64,000 nucleotides of DNA. Origin: a virus. Both the position numbers and the translations under genes were made by a program. The stretch's first letter is position 1. Each line of letters begins with the position of its first letter. The notes below the pieces were generated by a model that was not told the DNA's origin, did no database searches, and saw only the letters and a list, made by a program, of their open reading frames with translations. Positions 20,511-59,687 of this stretch are shown here, in pieces. The DNA lies in the IMG/VR virus record IMGVR_UViG_3300027759_000056, positions 1 through 64,000 of that record; one strand, given 5' to 3'.

Positions 20511-20630
20511 AGTCCAACAAAGATAATAAATAAATTTGATAAAAAAAAGACCCGATTTCTCGGGTCTTTTATAAAAGAGATATATATATAAAAACACCCA
20601 AAGGGCGATGAATATATAAATATTGTTAAT

Positions 20631-43921: not shown

Positions 43922-46042
43922 ATGAAAAACGAAATACTAAATGAAGGACAATTAGCTTTGGAAAAAGCACTTTTGATGATGAAATATGATTCAAAAGATA
44001 CTCTAAGTGAAAATTTAGAAAAAATAAATTTAAGTGAACAAGTTCAATCATTACTTGGAGCGGCTGAACGTGGATTAAGTAATGCTGCTGCAACTGAGAT
44101 TAAAACTGTTTTACAAAATCTTAGAAAACCACTACAAACTATTGATGGAGTTGTTTTATCAAATGGTGACGATGTGGTAAAGGCATTAAAGGCTGGTAAA
44201 CTTGCCGATGATGGTATCAGAAGTATTAGAACTGCACTTTTGAAAAGTACGACTAACCCAAAAATAAGAACAAAATTAATTGATTCATTATTGGAGAACC
44301 CACAAGTTCTTTCAAAATATGCAGGAAAAACTGAAAATCAAATTAAAGCGGCTTTTAAGAAATTGGGTTATAGTGATGAAGCAGCACTTGAAACCGCAAC
44401 AAAAATAGTAAACAAAAGTGCTGGTGGAGTTGGAGCTGGGGCTGGAGCCGCAGCAAATACCACGGTTAACGCATCAAAATTAGCATCACTTTATTCAAGT
44501 GTAAAAGGGTTAAAATGGAAAGGTCTTCCAAGAATTGTAAGATGGGGTTTAACAGGTGCTGGGTTATATGCGGCATATAGATATTTTATCCATGAAGAAG
44601 AATTGTTTCCACAATGTTTAGAAAAGAAAATACCTGATAATTTATTATCAGATGCCTTAAAAAACAAAAGTGTGATTATTAAGTCTACAGGTAATAGACA
44701 AATTGATACTTTAGGTGGTTTGAAATTTTATTTAGATTCAAACAAAGTATCATCTGTTAATGGTTCTTATACTGGTACGTATAGTTGTGATGGTGATAAT
44801 TTAATGAGTGATATTGGTGGAAGTGAATTTATTGTTACCGGTTCAGTAGTTGGTTCAGGTTTAGCTTCCGCAGCAGCACCCGCAACAGCTTCCGCAGCAG
44901 CACCCGCAACAGCTTCCGCAGCAGCACCCGCAACAAAAGTGGCCCCAATTACTGATACAAAATTATTAAATACGTTAAAATTCGATTATGAGTTTCCGGG
45001 TGATAAAGGATACACATACGCATTTGTTCCAACAGTAACTGAAGATACCTCAACTCAAAGTGGAACATGGTATGCTAAAAGTAACAAAACGGGTAAAGTA
45101 TTCGATATTACTAAAAACTATCCACAAACAGCTGAAAAATTAAATACACAATTTCCAAATGCGGCTACAACTGGAAGTCAAACAACTCAAACATCAAATG
45201 AGTCAAATAAAACAACAACCGCAGCTGATGACGTATCTTCAATACAAGGTAAAAAACTTGAGGTTCAGTCTGTGAGTCCTGATTTACAAACACCAAAAAA
45301 TATTAATTTAGCAACAACTATGAATCCAAATACAAATAATTCAGATAAAATTGGTCCTAAAACCGAAAGTCTAAAAAAATCATTAAAGAAAAATTTAATT
45401 GAAGCGAAAGAAAATAAAGAAAACTTAATGGTTGAAACAAATATAGTTGAAAAACGTTTTAACTTTATTGTTGAAGGTAAAACTTTTAATAATTTAGAAG
45501 ACCAAAATAATTTAGTTGAATCTGTAATTTCTGAAATAGGGTACTTAAAGAATCAAGGATATACCTCAAAAGCAATCAATGAAGGTTTATTCTCAATGTT
45601 AAGTAGTTTATTAGGTGGTGGAGCTCAAGCGGTACCAGCGGTATTTGGTGAATACATAGCAAATTGGATAACAGGTAAATTACAAATACCAAAAAATAGT
45701 TATATGAACGGTGTTATTGTCGCGTTGATTGGTAACTTGAATATTGCGGATTATGATAGATTCTTCAGTGATTGCAGATTCGCATCAAATAAAATTGCTG
45801 ACTCGTTAATTGAGGGTTATTTAGTTCAGTTACAAAATCAAAAGGATGTTAATTCAGGAGCTTCAGGATTTATTGTGTCGGCATTAAGAAACTCAGTTGT
45901 TGATTATTTTGCTGAAGATAAAAATTCATTAATACAAATATTAGAGGACAAAATTGGTGAATTCCTTTGTCCAAAACTATCAAAACTTTCAGGAATAATT
46001 GGTGATAAGGCCAATGAAATGAAAGCTAAAGTGGTAGCATAA
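43922..46042 (+). CDS. large virion-like protein
   Basis: 706 aa; LxE sites; ASAAAPAT x3. Confidence 0.75.
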   Translation: MKNEILNEGQLALEKALLMMKYDSKDTLSENLEKINLSEQVQSLLGAAERGLSNAAATEIKTVLQNLRKPLQTIDGVVLSNGDDVVKALKAGKLADDGIRSIRTALLKSTTNPKIRTKLIDSLLENPQVLSKYAGKTENQIKAAFKKLGYSDEAALETATKIVNKSAGGVGAGAGAAANTTVNASKLASLYSSVKGLKWKGLPRIVRWGLTGAGLYAAYRYFIHEEELFPQCLEKKIPDNLLSDALKNKSVIIKSTGNRQIDTLGGLKFYLDSNKVSSVNGSYTGTYSCDGDNLMSDIGGSEFIVTGSVVGSGLASAAAPATASAAAPATASAAAPATKVAPITDTKLLNTLKFDYEFPGDKGYTYAFVPTVTEDTSTQSGTWYAKSNKTGKVFDITKNYPQTAEKLNTQFPNAATTGSQTTQTSNESNKTTTAADDVSSIQGKKLEVQSVSPDLQTPKNINLATTMNPNTNNSDKIGPKTESLKKSLKKNLIEAKENKENLMVETNIVEKRFNFIVEGKTFNNLEDQNNLVESVISEIGYLKNQGYTSKAINEGLFSMLSSLLGGGAQAVPAVFGEYIANWITGKLQIPKNSYMNGVIVALIGNLNIADYDRFFSDCRFASNKIADSLIEGYLVQLQNQKDVNSGASGFIVSALRNSVVDYFAEDKNSLIQILEDKIGEFLCPKLSKLSGIIGDKANEMKAKVVA
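44864..44935 (+). repeat. 3 x 24-bp coding tandem repeat
   Basis: gcttccgcagcagcacccgcaaca. Confidence 0.8.
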
Positions 46043-46107
46043 GAGATTTCCAAGGTAAGACTTGTAAATATAAATCACTTAATCAAAAGGGGGTGTTTTC
46101 AAAACCA

Positions 46108-46133
46108 AAGGGTTCCGTAAGGAACCCTTTTTT
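46108..46133. terminator. terminator between convergent genes
   Basis: aagggttcc-gtaa-ggaaccctttttt. Confidence 0.8.
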
Positions 46134-46138
46134 GTTGG

Positions 46139-46816
46139 TTATTTTTTCTCTTTTCTAACTACAATCTCATCAATAATTCCGTATTCTAATGCATCATTTG
46201 CACTTAACCACAAATCACGACTTGAGTCTTTCATAACTTGTTTTGCTGTTTTACCACAATACCCACCTAACAAATCAAAAAGAATTTGGTTAATTTTTTT
46301 CCACTCAACCATATCAATTTCTGCGTCTTGAATGTTTCCACGGAACCCACCTGAAGATTGGTGTAACATTGTTCTTGAAAACCTCAAAGATGAACGTTTA
46401 CCTTTGGTACCAGCACCTAATAATACTGAACCCATTGACGCTGCCATACCAGTGTTAACTGTACGAATATCACAACGTATATAATCCATAACATCAACCA
46501 TAGACAAACCTGACTTTACTGAACCACCAGGACTGTCAATATGCATTGTAATGTCTGAACCTTCAACAGAATCCAAATACATTAACTGTGCTTGAACTAC
46601 CGTTGACATATTATCATCAACAGGTCCCGCAACCCATAATAATCTTTCCCTCATTAAACGAGAAAAGATATCCATTTGGGTAACCCTCATTTCTCTTTCT
46701 TCAAGAATGTAGGGTGTCATCGAATTCTCAATTCGTTGATTGTAATAATGTAAATCTAATGAACCTTTACCAAGATGCTTGGTGTAGTAACTTTGAAACT
46801 CTTTTGTAGTATCCAT
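46139..46816 (-). CDS. clpP: ATP-dependent Clp protease proteolytic subunit
   Basis: MDIFSRL..IDSPGGSV..GMAASMG..MLHQ..RD.W.SA..A.EYG. Confidence 0.95.
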   Translation of the reverse strand: MDTTKEFQSYYTKHLGKGSLDLHYYNQRIENSMTPYILEEREMRVTQMDIFSRLMRERLLWVAGPVDDNMSTVVQAQLMYLDSVEGSDITMHIDSPGGSVKSGLSMVDVMDYIRCDIRTVNTGMAASMGSVLLGAGTKGKRSSLRFSRTMLHQSSGGFRGNIQDAEIDMVEWKKINQILFDLLGGYCGKTAKQVMKDSSRDLWLSANDALEYGIIDEIVVRKEKK

Positions 46817-46837
46817 ATTTTATTTTGTATAATTTAG

Positions 46838-46922
46838 TACCGATGGCCGGAGTCGAACCGGCACGGACCTTACAGTCCACAGGATTTTAAGTCCTGCGTG
46901 GCTACCTTTTCACCACATCGGC
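46838..46922 (-). tRNA. tRNA-Leu(TAA)
   Basis: CAGGA-CTTAAAA-TCCTG; long variable arm. Confidence 0.93.
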
Positions 46923-46954
46923 ATTGTTATACAAATATAAGAACTATTTTTTAA

Positions 46955-47446
46955 TTAAACAAATGATTGTTTGTAATCAGACCACAATACTTCAACTTCT
47001 GAACTTATAATAGATGAAAAAACAGTTGGTTCATAAACTCTGTATCTCATTTTCATATTTGCTTCTTCAGGTGTCTTGTTGGCCTTTTTCAAATTACAAG
47101 AAGAACAACATGTTACCAAGTTAGTCCAACTGTTTTTTCCATCACGTGAACGAGGTATGATATGGTCAATTGTTAAATTTTTTTCACTTCCACAATAAAC
47201 ACATTGGTTGTTATCTCTTTTATAGATACGTTTTCTATTTAACCTAACACCTCGTGTTTTAAATCTAACATATGACAATAAACGAATTATTAATGGTTTA
47301 ACATAATTTTTAACTGATGATGATATTTTTTGAGAGTCTTGTTTTAAAACCTCAGCCTTTCCTTTTATGACCAATACAAATCCCTTACGAACCGAAGTTA
47401 CGTTCAAAGGTGTGTAGTCTGAGTTTAATACTAATACTTTATCCAT
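46955..47446 (-). CDS. HNH endonuclease (McrA-like)
   Basis: VLVLN..RD..CVYCG..LTIDHIIPRSR..W.NLVTCC..CN.KK. Confidence 0.88.
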   Translation of the reverse strand: MDKVLVLNSDYTPLNVTSVRKGFVLVIKGKAEVLKQDSQKISSSVKNYVKPLIIRLLSYVRFKTRGVRLNRKRIYKRDNNQCVYCGSEKNLTIDHIIPRSRDGKNSWTNLVTCCSSCNLKKANKTPEEANMKMRYRVYEPTVFSSIISSEVEVLWSDYKQSFV

Positions 47447-47482
47447 TTCAATATGTTTTACAAATTTACAAAATTTATGTGT

Positions 47483-47637
47483 AAAAAAAAAGTCCTGATT
47501 TCTCAGGACCCTTCTAAACACGTTTATTATCTTTTTCGGCGTTTCAAAAGGGTCATAGGTTTATCAAACAATAACGATGGCGTACCGTTAAGATACACAA
47601 TCTCTGTTTGCCCAATATTCATTGCCGTACAATTCAT
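47483..47637 (-). promoter_or_regulatory. putative attenuator 3: 36-aa leader ORF 47637..47527, antiterminator and terminator 47483..47511
   Basis: MNCTAMNIGQTEIVYLNGTPSLLFDKPMTLLKRRKR*; GACCCTT pairs with AAGGGTC in the terminator 5' arm. Confidence 0.55.
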
Positions 47638-47697
47638 CTACACATAAATAGGTGTAAATGTTGAAAAAGTCAAATATTTTGTTTATCTTTCTATCAT

Positions 47698-48051
47698 ATG
47701 AATATTAACTTAAAGTATTTTCTACTAACTTGTTTGTTTTTTTTATTAGGTCAAACTGGTGTGTGGTTCCAACTAAATGCACAATTTATGTGGGATTGGG
47801 CAAAAAAGAATCCATTGGCTATGTCGTTTGTTGGTGTGCCGTTCACATATCTTTTTATATTAGCCACAGGTTATGGTGAAAAAGCATTTATGGGATTAAT
47901 GTGGCCACAAAGATTTTTAGGATTCTCAATTGGTATTGTAATCTACGCAATTTTAACATATTTTTTCTTAAACCAAGGTATGACACCTAAAACATGGGTT
48001 AGTTTGACTTTGGCAATTATGATTATTATAATTCAAGTAATATTTAATTAA
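47698..48051 (+). CDS. 4-TM membrane protein
   Basis: four hydrophobic helices. Confidence 0.7.
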   Translation: MNINLKYFLLTCLFFLLGQTGVWFQLNAQFMWDWAKKNPLAMSFVGVPFTYLFILATGYGEKAFMGLMWPQRFLGFSIGIVIYAILTYFFLNQGMTPKTWVSLTLAIMIIIIQVIFN

Positions 48052-48253
48052 AGTTATGGCATATTGTATTGTAAAATTGATGAAAACTAATAATGGTGTT
48101 GAAATACCTGTTATATTATTGGATAACCACGATGAGGTTTGGGAATTTGATGATGTGGATATTGCCATTAAAATGTCTGAAATTTTAACAAAGAATTCTG
48201 ATTCGGGATATAGATATTTCGTAAAGAAAGTTTAACTTTGTGAAATAATAAAT

Positions 48254-48327
48254 GCCTTCGTAGCTCAGCTGGATAGAGCAACTGCCTTCTAAGCAGTAGG
48301 TCACAGGTTCGAATCCTGTCGGGGGTA
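48254..48327 (+). tRNA. tRNA-Arg(TCT)
   Basis: ACTGC-CTTCTAA-GCAGT. Confidence 0.93.
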
Positions 48328-48462
48328 CAAAATGAAATTTTGGAATAAAGACGAATGGCAAGGTAGGTCCAAAGAACAAGTGGAAAGCTATTATAGAAAT
48401 ATTGGTACCGTAACAACAATTGCGGTTTTATCATTTTGTTTGGTAAGTTTTATCATTTCAAT

Positions 48463-48816
48463 ATGGCACATCCTTTAATTCACGCAAAATCTTCTGCTAA
48501 AAAGTTTGGTGGAAAATTTGAAGATTACATTCATTTACACGATTGGTTAGATGAAACAAAGGCATGGGTGGGACATTCAAATCATAGAATGTTTCGTCAT
48601 CACTCAGAAGGTATTTTTGAGATGGAAAAAATATTTGGTAAATCATTTATTAATAGCGATGGTAAAACAGTTTACACCAGATATGTTGGTGAACAACACA
48701 TAAAAGAAGATTGTTTTAATTACATCCCAACAGCAAAAGATTGGATTGATGCTTTACAGGCTGAAAAGAAACCAATGTGGATGATAAGAACATTGGACCT
48801 CAAAGTTGATGATTGA
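48463..48816 (+). CDS. DUF6915-like protein
   Basis: MAHP..HA.SS..GG..EDY..HDW.D..HR..RHH.EG. Confidence 0.7.
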   Translation: MAHPLIHAKSSAKKFGGKFEDYIHLHDWLDETKAWVGHSNHRMFRHHSEGIFEMEKIFGKSFINSDGKTVYTRYVGEQHIKEDCFNYIPTAKDWIDALQAEKKPMWMIRTLDLKVDD

Positions 48817-48827
48817 TATTTATTATT

Positions 48828-49502
48828 ATGACTCCCAAACAAAAATCAATTTTTGAATTAGTTAGTAAATACGCATCTTCTCGTGGTTGTGAGTATCTTG
48901 AGATGGATGTTGACCCTTGGAATTTCACACCATATAACGGTAGAAATTTTGGTTGTGGAACTGAAAGACATGAAAATCCGCAAAAATTACCATTTGACAT
49001 AAGTGATATGATTACAGAATATGTTGGTGAAAATGCTTCAGATATTGATGAAGATAATTTGAGTGGGTTAAGTTTTAGATTATATCCCCAAACAAGGACA
49101 ATTACTATTAGTGGAACTTATCAAGAAGTTGTTGACGGACCTTTAGATGAAACTGAAAAAAGTGAAGAAGATGATGAAATTCTAAAAGAGATTATGGATT
49201 ATCTTAAAAACGAAGACATATATCCATTTGCGGAAGTTGAGTTTAGTGGTGCTGGTGATGATGGATATATTGAAGATAACTTATATGTTGATGCAGGTTC
49301 AAAACCACAAAGAAAAGTAGGTGATGTTCCAGGGTTAGAGGATTATTTATATGACATGTTAAATGTGTATGGTGGTTGGATGAATGATGAAGGTTCTTTT
49401 GGAAATTTCATGATTGACTCAAGAGCGGGTACAATTACATTAAAATTTACTTGGAATGAATATGCGTATGAAGATGTTGTATTCCATCAAGAAGAATTTT
49501 AA
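48828..49502 (+). CDS. DUF6878-like protein
   Basis: VEFSGAGDDG..GW..DEG..G; usual partner of DUF6915. Confidence 0.6.
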   Translation: MTPKQKSIFELVSKYASSRGCEYLEMDVDPWNFTPYNGRNFGCGTERHENPQKLPFDISDMITEYVGENASDIDEDNLSGLSFRLYPQTRTITISGTYQEVVDGPLDETEKSEEDDEILKEIMDYLKNEDIYPFAEVEFSGAGDDGYIEDNLYVDAGSKPQRKVGDVPGLEDYLYDMLNVYGGWMNDEGSFGNFMIDSRAGTITLKFTWNEYAYEDVVFHQEEF

Positions 49503-49505
49503 CCT

Positions 49506-50132
49506 ATGTCAGTTCTAAACCACAACATACCAAGTTTTAAGGCTTTAGTCCGCAAATCACATTTTACAAAAAACGAATCTGATTTTGAAACATTCTTAAA
49601 TGTTTATTGTTTTGGAATTCAATCTGTTAATGGAAAGATTTTAACTTTTCATGTTATGACAGATGATGGTATGGTAAGAAGTCGTGTACCAATGTCAGAA
49701 ATATTCACAAAACCCCCCACCAATGATATTCCTTTTCATTTCAAACAATTATGGGATTGTTTTTCAGAAAATGTTAGTGTTATAGAATATGATTTTCTTA
49801 AGGGTCATAAAGTTCAAGTTGCCTTAAGAGACGGTAATAAAGTTTGGGGGACCTATATGTTTACTGTGGATTGGTATAACAATCCGTTTAGTGATGAGCC
49901 GTCAGATTATAAGTGTGGACACATCTTCAGTGCTGATGATGGTTACTTGATGTGTCAACCAAATAACAGAATATTTTGGAAAGATTCAAATTGGGTTACC
50001 AAGGGGTTACCTGAAAACCTAAAACAATTCAAAGTAGATACCGAATTACCATCTGTAGAAAATGTTAGTGATAGATGGGTGTCTGAAGATTCCGATAGTT
50101 TTTATTACGATATTTCTTTGATTAAAGAATAA
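49506..50132 (+). CDS. conserved phage hypothetical protein
   Basis: QLWDCF..Y.FTVDW..K.GH..QPNNRI. Confidence 0.7.
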   Translation: MSVLNHNIPSFKALVRKSHFTKNESDFETFLNVYCFGIQSVNGKILTFHVMTDDGMVRSRVPMSEIFTKPPTNDIPFHFKQLWDCFSENVSVIEYDFLKGHKVQVALRDGNKVWGTYMFTVDWYNNPFSDEPSDYKCGHIFSADDGYLMCQPNNRIFWKDSNWVTKGLPENLKQFKVDTELPSVENVSDRWVSEDSDSFYYDISLIKE

Positions 50133-51973: not shown

Positions 51974-52210
51974 ATGATTACAATGGAAGACTTAAAAGAT
52001 TTTGACTTCACAAATGATAGTAAGGTTGAATTTATGACCAAACCAGGTTTTGTAGAAAAACGTATTCAACAAATGATTCAAATTGGTGCGAATGAAGAGT
52101 ATGAAAAATACAGTGAAGGAATGAGTGATGATGACATTGCAAAATGGAAAGAAGGGTTTGTAGTCGGAGCAAACTGGTTATTAAAAAATAAAAACGAAAA
52201 AAATATTTGA
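51974..52210 (+). CDS. hypothetical protein
   Basis: start refined to MITMED. Confidence 0.55.
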   Translation: MITMEDLKDFDFTNDSKVEFMTKPGFVEKRIQQMIQIGANEEYEKYSEGMSDDDIAKWKEGFVVGANWLLKNKNEKNI

Positions 52211-52259
52211 CATATCAATAAACTTTTGTATCTTTGTACCATATTTAATACTAAACACA

Positions 52260-52355
52260 ATGAAACTCGTAAATAAACAAATCGTGAAACATGTCATTCA
52301 ATTCTGTTCGAATTGGTATCTTCGCGTATTCGTAAGTTCGGGTGTTTTAAGTTAA
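52260..52355 (+). CDS. leader peptide of tRNA array 1 (MKLVNKQIVKHVIQFCSNWYLRVFVSSGVLS)
   Basis: 31-codon ORF after TTTG..TATCTTTG promoter; control window matches the array; overlaps the antiterminator. Confidence 0.8.
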   Translation: MKLVNKQIVKHVIQFCSNWYLRVFVSSGVLS

Positions 52356-52407
52356 CACATAGTAGCCTTAAAAAGGAAACCCGAACTCACAAGGTTCGGG
52401 TTTTTTT
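52335..52407 (+). terminator. attenuator 1: terminator 52377..52407 and alternative antiterminator AGTTCGGGT (52335-43) : ACCCGAACT (52379-87)
   Basis: mutually exclusive pairings read directly from sequence. Confidence 0.85.
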
Positions 52408-52413
52408 GTTTTT

Positions 52414-52435
52414 AAGTTCTTTGACATGTTGGTAA
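52414..52435 (+). promoter_or_regulatory. rrn-type boxA-like element
   Basis: AAGTTCTTTGACatgTTGGTAA; repeated before array 2. Confidence 0.7.
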
Positions 52436-59419: not shown

Positions 59420-59476
59420 TTGACACTTTTCAAAAGTTTGATATATTTAATAAGAAATTAAATAATAATACATTCA

Positions 59477-59545
59477 ATGATTACCATCAACATATTCGGC
59501 ACACCAGCAACAGAGGCTGATACTTCCAAAGTGGAGATGGGATAA
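59477..59545 (+). CDS. leader peptide of tRNA array 2 (MITINIFGTPATEADTSKVEMG)
   Basis: 22-codon ORF; control codons match the array; overlaps the antiterminator. Confidence 0.75.
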   Translation: MITINIFGTPATEADTSKVEMG

Positions 59546-59598
59546 TATTGTAAAAAAATATCTTACAAAAACCCATCTCAAAAGGATGGGTTTTTTTT
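59534..59598 (+). terminator. attenuator 2: terminator 59567..59598 and antiterminator GAGATGGG (59534-41) : CCCATCTC (59572-79)
   Basis: mutually exclusive pairings read directly from sequence. Confidence 0.82.
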
Positions 59599-59665
59599 GT
59601 GTTTGTTTGGCAGTATCAAAAAAATGTATTAACTTTGTAGTGTTGAAAAACACAACAGAACAAAA

Positions 59666-59687
59666 AAGTTCTTTGACGTATTGGTAA
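59666..59687 (+). promoter_or_regulatory. rrn-type boxA-like element
   Basis: AAGTTCTTTGACgtaTTGGTAA. Confidence 0.7.

Follow-up and report, generated by a model that had tools for sequence, protein, structure and literature searches.

Directly upstream of an HNH endonuclease gene, a tRNA-Leu(UAA) gene and a clpP-like protease gene of a phage-like contig, we find a compact unit in which the 3' end of a short open reading frame can pair with the foot of an intrinsic terminator. We read it, with a probability of about one half, as a ribosome-operated leader-peptide attenuator that probably once served tRNA-Leu and has now been split off from it by the mobile HNH gene. This reading is drawn from sequence comparison: from the anatomy and folding energies of the unit, and from its conserved pairings and open frame in relatives.

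The analysed stretch of DNA, here called the window, comprises 64,000 nucleotides, the opening 64 kb of one contig of 111,976 bp with 32.5% G+C, and contains 29 tRNA genes by ARAGORN. Relatives of the window are large uncultured IMG/VR phages, with contigs of up to ~320 kb, mostly from lake metagenomes. The nearest GenBank phage, LR745206.1 (634 kb), has a clpP that is 64% identical, with no synteny, no HNH and no tRNA there. One relative carries a freshwater-1 RNA motif (RF02979; L087:1593-1655, minus strand) scoring 67.8 bits, slightly below the gathering score of 72.

Anatomy and alternative folds of the unit

The unit and its downstream genes consist of the following elements (window coordinates; type A is the group of relatives to which the window belongs).

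47668..47673 (-): TTGACT, -35/-33-like box, 17 nt upstream of TATTTAT; kept in all type-A relatives
47644..47650 (-): TATTTAT promoter-like box; the leader ATG follows after 6 nt
47527..47637 (-): 36-codon leader ORF, coordinates with the stop included; ATG at 47637, second TAA straight after the first
47569..47574 (-): tandem Leu codons TTA-TTG, codons 22-23; the antiterminator arm begins 14 nt later
47539..47554 (-): antiterminator 5' arm, within the last codons of the ORF
47507..47521 (-): antiterminator 3' arm, overlapping the terminator foot and the first three stem bases
47483..47515 (-): intrinsic terminator with extended stem, GAAA loop and nine U; -15.7 kcal/mol
47461..47468 (-): TAAATTTG, -7 box of Bacteroidota type; the HNH start follows after 14 nt
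46955..47446 (-): HNH endonuclease gene, 163 aa (Pfam HNH_5 6.9e-15, HNH 5.2e-14)
46932..46939 (-): TATATTTG -7 box, 9 nt before the 5' end of mature tRNA-Leu
46837..46922 (-): tRNA-Leu, anticodon UAA (ARAGORN; Rfam tRNA 55.5 bits)
46139..46816 (-): clpP-like protease gene, 225 aa (Pfam CLP_protease 1.4e-55)

The unit begins here, since the next upstream gene lies on the opposite strand; the TTGACT box and the promoter region of this divergent membrane-protein gene (47698..48051, plus strand) stand back to back. An earlier note on this DNA had described the TATTTAT box, the 36-codon ORF, the TTA-TTG pair, a helix with the stop codon in its loop and a terminator ending in T9, and all of them are present on the minus strand at the coordinates listed. 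The leader stop codon (47529..47527) falls in the antiterminator loop, 10 nt past the 5' arm. The core stem of the terminator is G+C-rich and 7 bp long (47509..47503 with 47498..47492), can be extended to 12-13 bp, and is followed by T9 at 47491..47483. A simple terminator scan missed this terminator, probably because extension of the stem into the T run uses up the tail. No Pfam family matches the 36-codon ORF. Rfam, searched with window 45000-50000 at E up to 1, returned only the tRNA and no T-box, leader (Leu, Trp, His, Thr, Phe) or sRNA family; the leader elements of eight relatives, searched at E up to 5, matched no leader or T-box family either.

What do the boxes stand for? TATTTAT followed by 4-6 nt and an ATG occurs at ~45 long ORFs genome-wide, and a TAnnTTTG box lies 4-6 nt ahead of the start codon of at least 11 long ORFs (TAnnTTTG/TATTTAT start examples: window 12391, 50152, 55850 (+) and 1830, 10974, 56569 (+)). 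In Bacteroidota promoters, TAnnTTTG serves as the -7 element. Because of this identity, and of the distance of only 4-6 nt between boxes and starts, the host would appear to belong to the Bacteroidota, and the phage mRNAs to be mostly leaderless or near-leaderless and driven by two promoter classes. The leader ATG of our unit shares its distance from TATTTAT with those ~45 genes, which counts in favour of the attenuator reading; the spacing likewise implies a leaderless or nearly leaderless leader mRNA. A PHROGs search of the genes behind TATTTAT or TAnnTTTG boxes assigned no function to them, and gave no timing class for either promoter type. Elsewhere in the window, at 20530-20625 (minus strand), a TATTTAT without ATG is followed by ~60 nt, a strong GAAA-loop terminator and then a TAnnTTTG box ahead of the next gene, an arrangement that may specify a short non-coding transcript.

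The leader region folds better than its shuffles (z = -4.1). For a transcript that starts at the ATG, the terminator fold (-37.5 kcal/mol) and the antiterminator fold (-37.2 to -37.5 kcal/mol) are iso-energetic, and the lone hairpins are closely matched as well (terminator -15.7, antiterminator -16.4 kcal/mol). The two are mutually exclusive: the antiterminator takes three bases of the core stem together with the purine foot, the partner of the U tract, and the residual hairpin (5 bp, -5.5 kcal/mol) is separated from that tract by two bases. As modelled, the pair is a bistable design. The earlier note had the helix sequestering the 5' arm of the terminator; in the window the overlap is partial, comprising the foot and three core bases, and in the relatives of type B the antiterminator takes up the terminator's entire 5' arm.

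How unusual is such complementarity in this genome? An exact-repeat search for copies of the terminator 3' arm misses the element, because its helix uses the foot and not the core arm. We therefore computed, for the 36 predicted terminators of the genome, the duplex energy between the 100 nt upstream and the terminator 5' side. At -19.1 kcal/mol the duplex of the leader is the strongest of the 36, and 0/150 shuffles are as good; its z-score is the third-best. First by z-score is a unit at window 59420-59600 (plus strand), second an ordinary gene-end terminator, and fourth a unit at window 52208-52400 (plus strand). A candidate fourth leader (genome position 65979, minus strand) was rejected, being an ordinary gene-end terminator.

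The units ranked first and fourth are two further combinations of leader ORF, antiterminator and terminator, each placed before a tRNA array. The switch that the earlier note proposed is present, and it is built like the other two leaders of the genome. In the array leaders the last codons of the ORF repeat the terminator 3' arm and the stop codon follows immediately; our unit is alike in that the end of its ORF repeats or complements a terminator arm, that the stop follows at once, and that a -7 box or boxA-like motif lies past the terminator. It is unlike them in that the HNH gene sits between its switch and the tRNA, in that it lists no tRNA set, and in that its family follows the HNH gene to places free of tRNA. 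As a tRNA sensor, the HNH leader is weaker than the two array leaders. The boxA-like motif GTTCTTTGA is found at window 52414-52424 and 59674-59684 (plus strand), 15-30 nt ahead of the first tRNA of each array, and it also precedes tRNA-Leu in several related loci.

Relatives: conservation of the switch and linkage to HNH

HNH and clpP homologues were gathered from viral and metagenome contigs, and 133 distinct HNH upstream regions were sorted. Of these, 38 have a unit built in the same way, with a box, an ATG, a short ORF, a terminator, a stretch of 40-75 nt that includes a TAnnTTTG box, and the HNH start; the other 95 lack it. The units fall into four sequence types, for which HNH identity to the window is also given.

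Type A (includes the window): 12 distinct sequences, HNH 73-100% identical
Type B: 5 distinct sequences, HNH 57-62%
Type C: 19 distinct sequences, HNH 53-61%
Type D: 2 distinct sequences, HNH about 70%

A scan with the type-C DNA pattern, blind to HNH, returned 18 full copies, every one of them directly before an HNH gene, and blind scans for types A and B likewise returned HNH-linked copies only. Since these scans found no other copies, the leader family is, as judged from its sequence contexts, tied to the HNH gene and not to clpP; the converse is false, given the 95 HNH contexts without a leader. The HNH gene itself has variable neighbours: besides its 133 distinct upstream contexts, it may be present or absent before clpP and stands beside different tRNA genes, which fits a free-standing mobile endonuclease.

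Two loci of this collection deserve separate mention. At L277:2989-3830 (contig SXGQ01042012.1; HNH 90% identical to that of the window) the tRNA-Leu(UAA) gene is split in the anticodon loop by a ~790-nt insert containing an HNH-motif ORF, and ARAGORN reports no tRNA there. The insert resembles a group I intron that houses a homing endonuclease and sits at the classic position in tRNA-Leu(UAA), but no intron family of Rfam matched it. In type-C loci, such as L040:979-1180, two copies of a ATAAACTAT block are found, one where the small ORF ends and the other ~75 nt downstream, overlapping with the HNH -7 box; the two might represent a pair of operator sites.

Is the switch maintained? We aligned 15 distinct type-A and type-B sequences, the HNH genes of which are 57-99% identical. 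Six core antiterminator pairs form in all 15 (90/90 cells), and two of these pairs are changed on both sides, one from G-C to A-U and the other from C-G to U-A, with a U-G wobble in one sequence. The terminator pairs form in 100% of cells, with four of them changed on both sides. A base common to both helices changes in one lineage along with its partner in the ORF and its partner in the terminator 3' arm. When the partners are slid by one to three columns as a control, pairing drops to 32-67%. Because the sequences are related and the independent changes few, the covariation lends the switch moderate and not decisive support. Two of the checks that the earlier note had called for, folding of the alternative structures and a search for conservation in relatives, came out in favour of the switch.

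The reading frame is retained as well. It is open in 17/17 distinct sequences of types A and B, where indels are in frame, down to an HNH identity of 73%; the relative at 73% has several such indels. The loop between the two antiterminator arms is the most variable part of the unit, and its changes alter the tail of the peptide and the exact position of the stop codon, which nevertheless stays in the loop throughout types A and B. Could the ORF then be a stand-alone gene for a small protein, for instance an accessory factor or regulator of the endonuclease, that has its own promoter and terminator and travels with HNH, its 3' hairpin serving only to stabilise a short mRNA? Such a gene would account for a module of small ORF, terminator and HNH that recurs in four sequence types, and for the invariable position of the blind-scanned type-C copies directly before HNH, which has a promoter-like box of its own. 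It would also suit the recurrence of certain residues in spite of differing codons: types A, B and C all have Leu-Leu (at this position type D has only one Leu) and a Thr near the 3' end of the ORF. The remainder of the peptide behaves otherwise. Its sequence evolves fast, and the variable columns, counted by codon position, number 20/17/17 in type A and 15/10/20 in type B, that is, with little third-position bias; the C-terminal tail is altered with every loop indel; the type-C ORF is broken in 5/19 copies while the nucleotide blocks are still conserved; and Pfam knows no such family. A small protein would further leave unexplained why the ORF 3' end covaries with the terminator foot, and why tRNA arrays, where no protein partner is needed, are preceded by the same design. 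We therefore regard this explanation as unlikely. The frame of the leader seems to matter more than its peptide, a pattern that fits a leader better than a working protein.

A slightly less probable alternative is that the terminator acts as a constitutive insulator, shielding HNH from upstream transcription, and that the ORF and the helix are relics of an old tRNA-Leu leader that was co-converted with HNH. Some relatives (locus L089) indeed have only a terminator with a similar loop, and no ORF, between the upstream gene and HNH, and the downstream genes have predicted promoters of their own. Type C points in the same direction: its ORFs are decaying and it is without a significant antiterminator. 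We had considered pairing of its conserved Arg-Thr codon block with the terminator arm and rejected it, since the energies (-4 to -10 kcal/mol, z +0.6 to -1.7) are poor and the block pairs its own terminator arm no better than the arms of other sequences. Terminators and hairpins that hold down homing endonuclease genes are, in addition, known from T-even phages (PMC2988022). Mere relics, however, would hardly retain an intact ORF in every type-A and type-B sequence, nor an alternative helix kept by compensatory changes across HNH identities of 57-99%, and a dedicated promoter-like box directly upstream of an insulator would serve no purpose.

RNAalifold, applied to whole elements, recovers the terminator only and, in type C, a 5-bp hairpin, with no other conserved structure. 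The broken frames of type C prompted us to consider a pure non-coding RNA, a reading that we rejected for types A and B, in which all ORFs are open. More generally, a riboregulator independent of translation, in which the ~150-nt transcript acts in trans or a bound protein or tRNA selects the fold, could draw on the unit's own promoter-like box and terminator, on type-C blocks that are strongly conserved at the nucleotide level whatever the frame, and on the folding z-score of -4.1, yet is improbable in view of the in-frame indels that keep types A and B open, the lack of any match in Rfam (T-box, leaders or sRNAs; E cut-offs of 1-5), and the lack of conserved structure beyond the two competing helices.

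Leucine codons, downstream genes and a proposed mechanism

If the unit is a ribosome-operated attenuator, what does it sense, and on behalf of which gene? The earlier note had taken the use of 18 of the 20 amino acids as the mark of a general sensor. This argument is not supported: for 36 residues of genome composition P is ~0.09, and the relatives use 14-17 amino acids. Nor do the relatives support the proposed cargo of a tRNA and a protease, for the leader always stands directly before HNH. As a whole, the earlier reading finds partial support only. In types A, B and D a tRNA-Leu follows HNH in 17/18 cases, within 450 nt in 16, and the lone exception is the L277 locus with its split tRNA gene. 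In type C, the largest type, tRNA-Leu is found in 1/18 only, and 11/18 have no clpP within 1.6 kb past HNH.

The leader of the window has 5 Leu in 36 residues, compared with 7.8% Leu in the genome, and contains a single TTA-TTG pair with no run of regulatory codons. Across relatives, the codons at the Leu-Leu site compare with the tRNA-Leu genes downstream as follows.

TTA-TTG: tRNA-Leu(UAA) only
CTT-TTG or CTT-TTA: tRNA-Leu(UAA) and tRNA-Leu(UAG)
CTT-CTG: tRNA-Leu(UAG) only

CTG makes up 1.2% of the Leu codons of this genome. Other Leu codons in the leaders of relatives do not track the downstream tRNA, and one lineage has TTA at the homologous site yet only tRNA-Leu(UAG) downstream. Because these other codons break the rule, we count the Leu-Leu pattern as a lead only. 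Of the earlier proposal that TTA-TTG is read by the tRNA-Leu(UAA) downstream, the codons are there, and the link to the tRNA is suggestive only.

The earlier note was right to caution that TAnnTTTG sites also occur downstream of the leader. These sites are conserved in relatives: we read the box before HNH in examples of every leader type, and most tRNA-Leu genes of the relatives are preceded by one, with or without a leader, while some have none. As HNH and tRNA-Leu each have a conserved box, and hence a predicted promoter, read-through from the leader would not be their sole route of expression. The same layout of terminator, -7 box and tRNA also follows the tRNA-array leaders of relatives, for which reason the boxes may be part of the normal design, providing basal expression to which an inducible share is added.

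A scan for the tRNA-Leu(UAA) gene led to two sister contigs, L355 and L356, in which a leader stands directly before this same tRNA. It consists of TATTTAT, an ORF of 22 codons, 8 of which specify Leu (TTA in 5 cases), a terminator, a TAnnTTTG box and then tRNA-Leu(UAA), and an alternative helix with the terminator lies just past the stop; in L355 the unit occupies ~727-900 of the 990-nt stretch extracted. Relatives that share the gene upstream of this leader have a terminator only, or nothing, at that place. Judging by contig name, each of the two contigs also has a type-C unit before an HNH gene elsewhere (L199 and L193, respectively). We infer that tRNA-Leu(UAA) in this phage group is served by a Leu-sensing leader, and that, where HNH moved away from the tRNA, the leader went along and is decaying.

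The attenuator that we favour would operate through coupling of ribosome and polymerase. Transcription would start at TATTTAT, at or beside the ATG of the 36-codon ORF. A ribosome that reaches the stop codon would cover the inner half of the 5' arm and the loop and so leave the terminator foot free; the strong terminator could then form, and the transcript of ~150 nt would end at the U tract. If the ribosome were slow, or stalled earlier, the 3' end of the ORF would pair with the terminator foot. By the known ribosome footprint, TTA-TTG lies just far enough upstream for a ribosome stalled there to leave the arm uncovered. With the antiterminator in place only the weak 5-bp hairpin would remain, and polymerase would read on into HNH, tRNA-Leu(UAA) and clpP, adding to basal transcription from the TAnnTTTG boxes of the downstream genes. 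As for its history, the unit was probably once the leader of tRNA-Leu(UAA), from which the free-standing HNH gene now separates it.

Taken to its full extent, the attenuator would mean that the phage gauges the speed at which UUA and UUG are read: a leaderless 36-codon test gene would release transcription of HNH, tRNA-Leu(UAA) and ClpP only when decoding slows, as one of three sensors that gate nearly all tRNA genes of the phage, and, dragged along by HNH, would decay where tRNA-Leu is missing. We put this fuller version forward tentatively, as a possibility with the odds against it. If true, it would provide a supply sensor for tRNA genes and bear on host resistance. tRNA-Leu(UAA) is a weak point of A+T-rich phages, and a marine Synechococcus resists a cyanophage by not supplying this tRNA (PMC11726456); other host defences cut tRNAs (PMC10264068, PMC11555353).

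Relation to known systems

The usual view of phage tRNA genes is that of helpers expressed constitutively. With a leader-peptide switch ahead of them, the phage would instead be sensing the decoding capacity of the infected cell and answering with tRNAs of its own. We found no published account of leader-peptide control, in the style of the trp operon, for phage tRNA genes. Nearest comes the stress-induced tRNA operon of Anabaena (PMC8421152; repressor TrcR, PMC10272220), which, in the portions of these papers that bear on the comparison, is silent by default and turned on when translation is impaired. It resembles our proposed attenuator in that extra tRNA genes are switched on by impaired translation, and differs in that, as far as those portions go, control is by a transcriptional repressor on a cyanobacterial megaplasmid, with no leader peptide or terminator.

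The HNH cassette also recalls the free-standing homing endonuclease genes mobE, segB and segF of T-even phages, for which terminators, RNA structures and several promoter classes are described in the relevant part of PMC2988022. According to that part, these genes, like the HNH cassette, occupy variable intergenic sites, often beside tRNA genes (T4 segB), and are restrained by terminators. The devices it covers act either as terminators within the gene or as hairpins masking the ribosome-binding site; it describes no translated leader paired with an antiterminator (PMC2988022). On our reading, the present case adds two points: such a switch can be parted from its tRNA by a mobile endonuclease gene, and the leader then travels with HNH and decays, which yields a natural series of working and relic copies for testing the mechanism. 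Attenuators governed by leader peptides have also been modelled (PMC1183508).

How does our unit compare with the attenuators of E. coli? There, leuL, trpL and hisL are leader-peptide attenuators of amino-acid operons. Unlike these, the HNH leader precedes an endonuclease, a tRNA and a protease of a phage and not biosynthetic enzymes; it has two tandem Leu codons as compared with four in leuL; no 1:2 helix was identified in it, and its mRNA is probably leaderless; and its downstream genes keep predicted promoters of their own, with no Rfam match for the leader. The resemblance lies in the core of the design: a short ORF, an intrinsic terminator, and a helix that uses the 3' end of the ORF and the 5' side of the terminator; a stop codon placed such that, given the general footprint of a ribosome, a terminating ribosome would block the antiterminator; and tandem codons for an amino acid, the cognate tRNA of which, in the case of the HNH leader, is encoded downstream.
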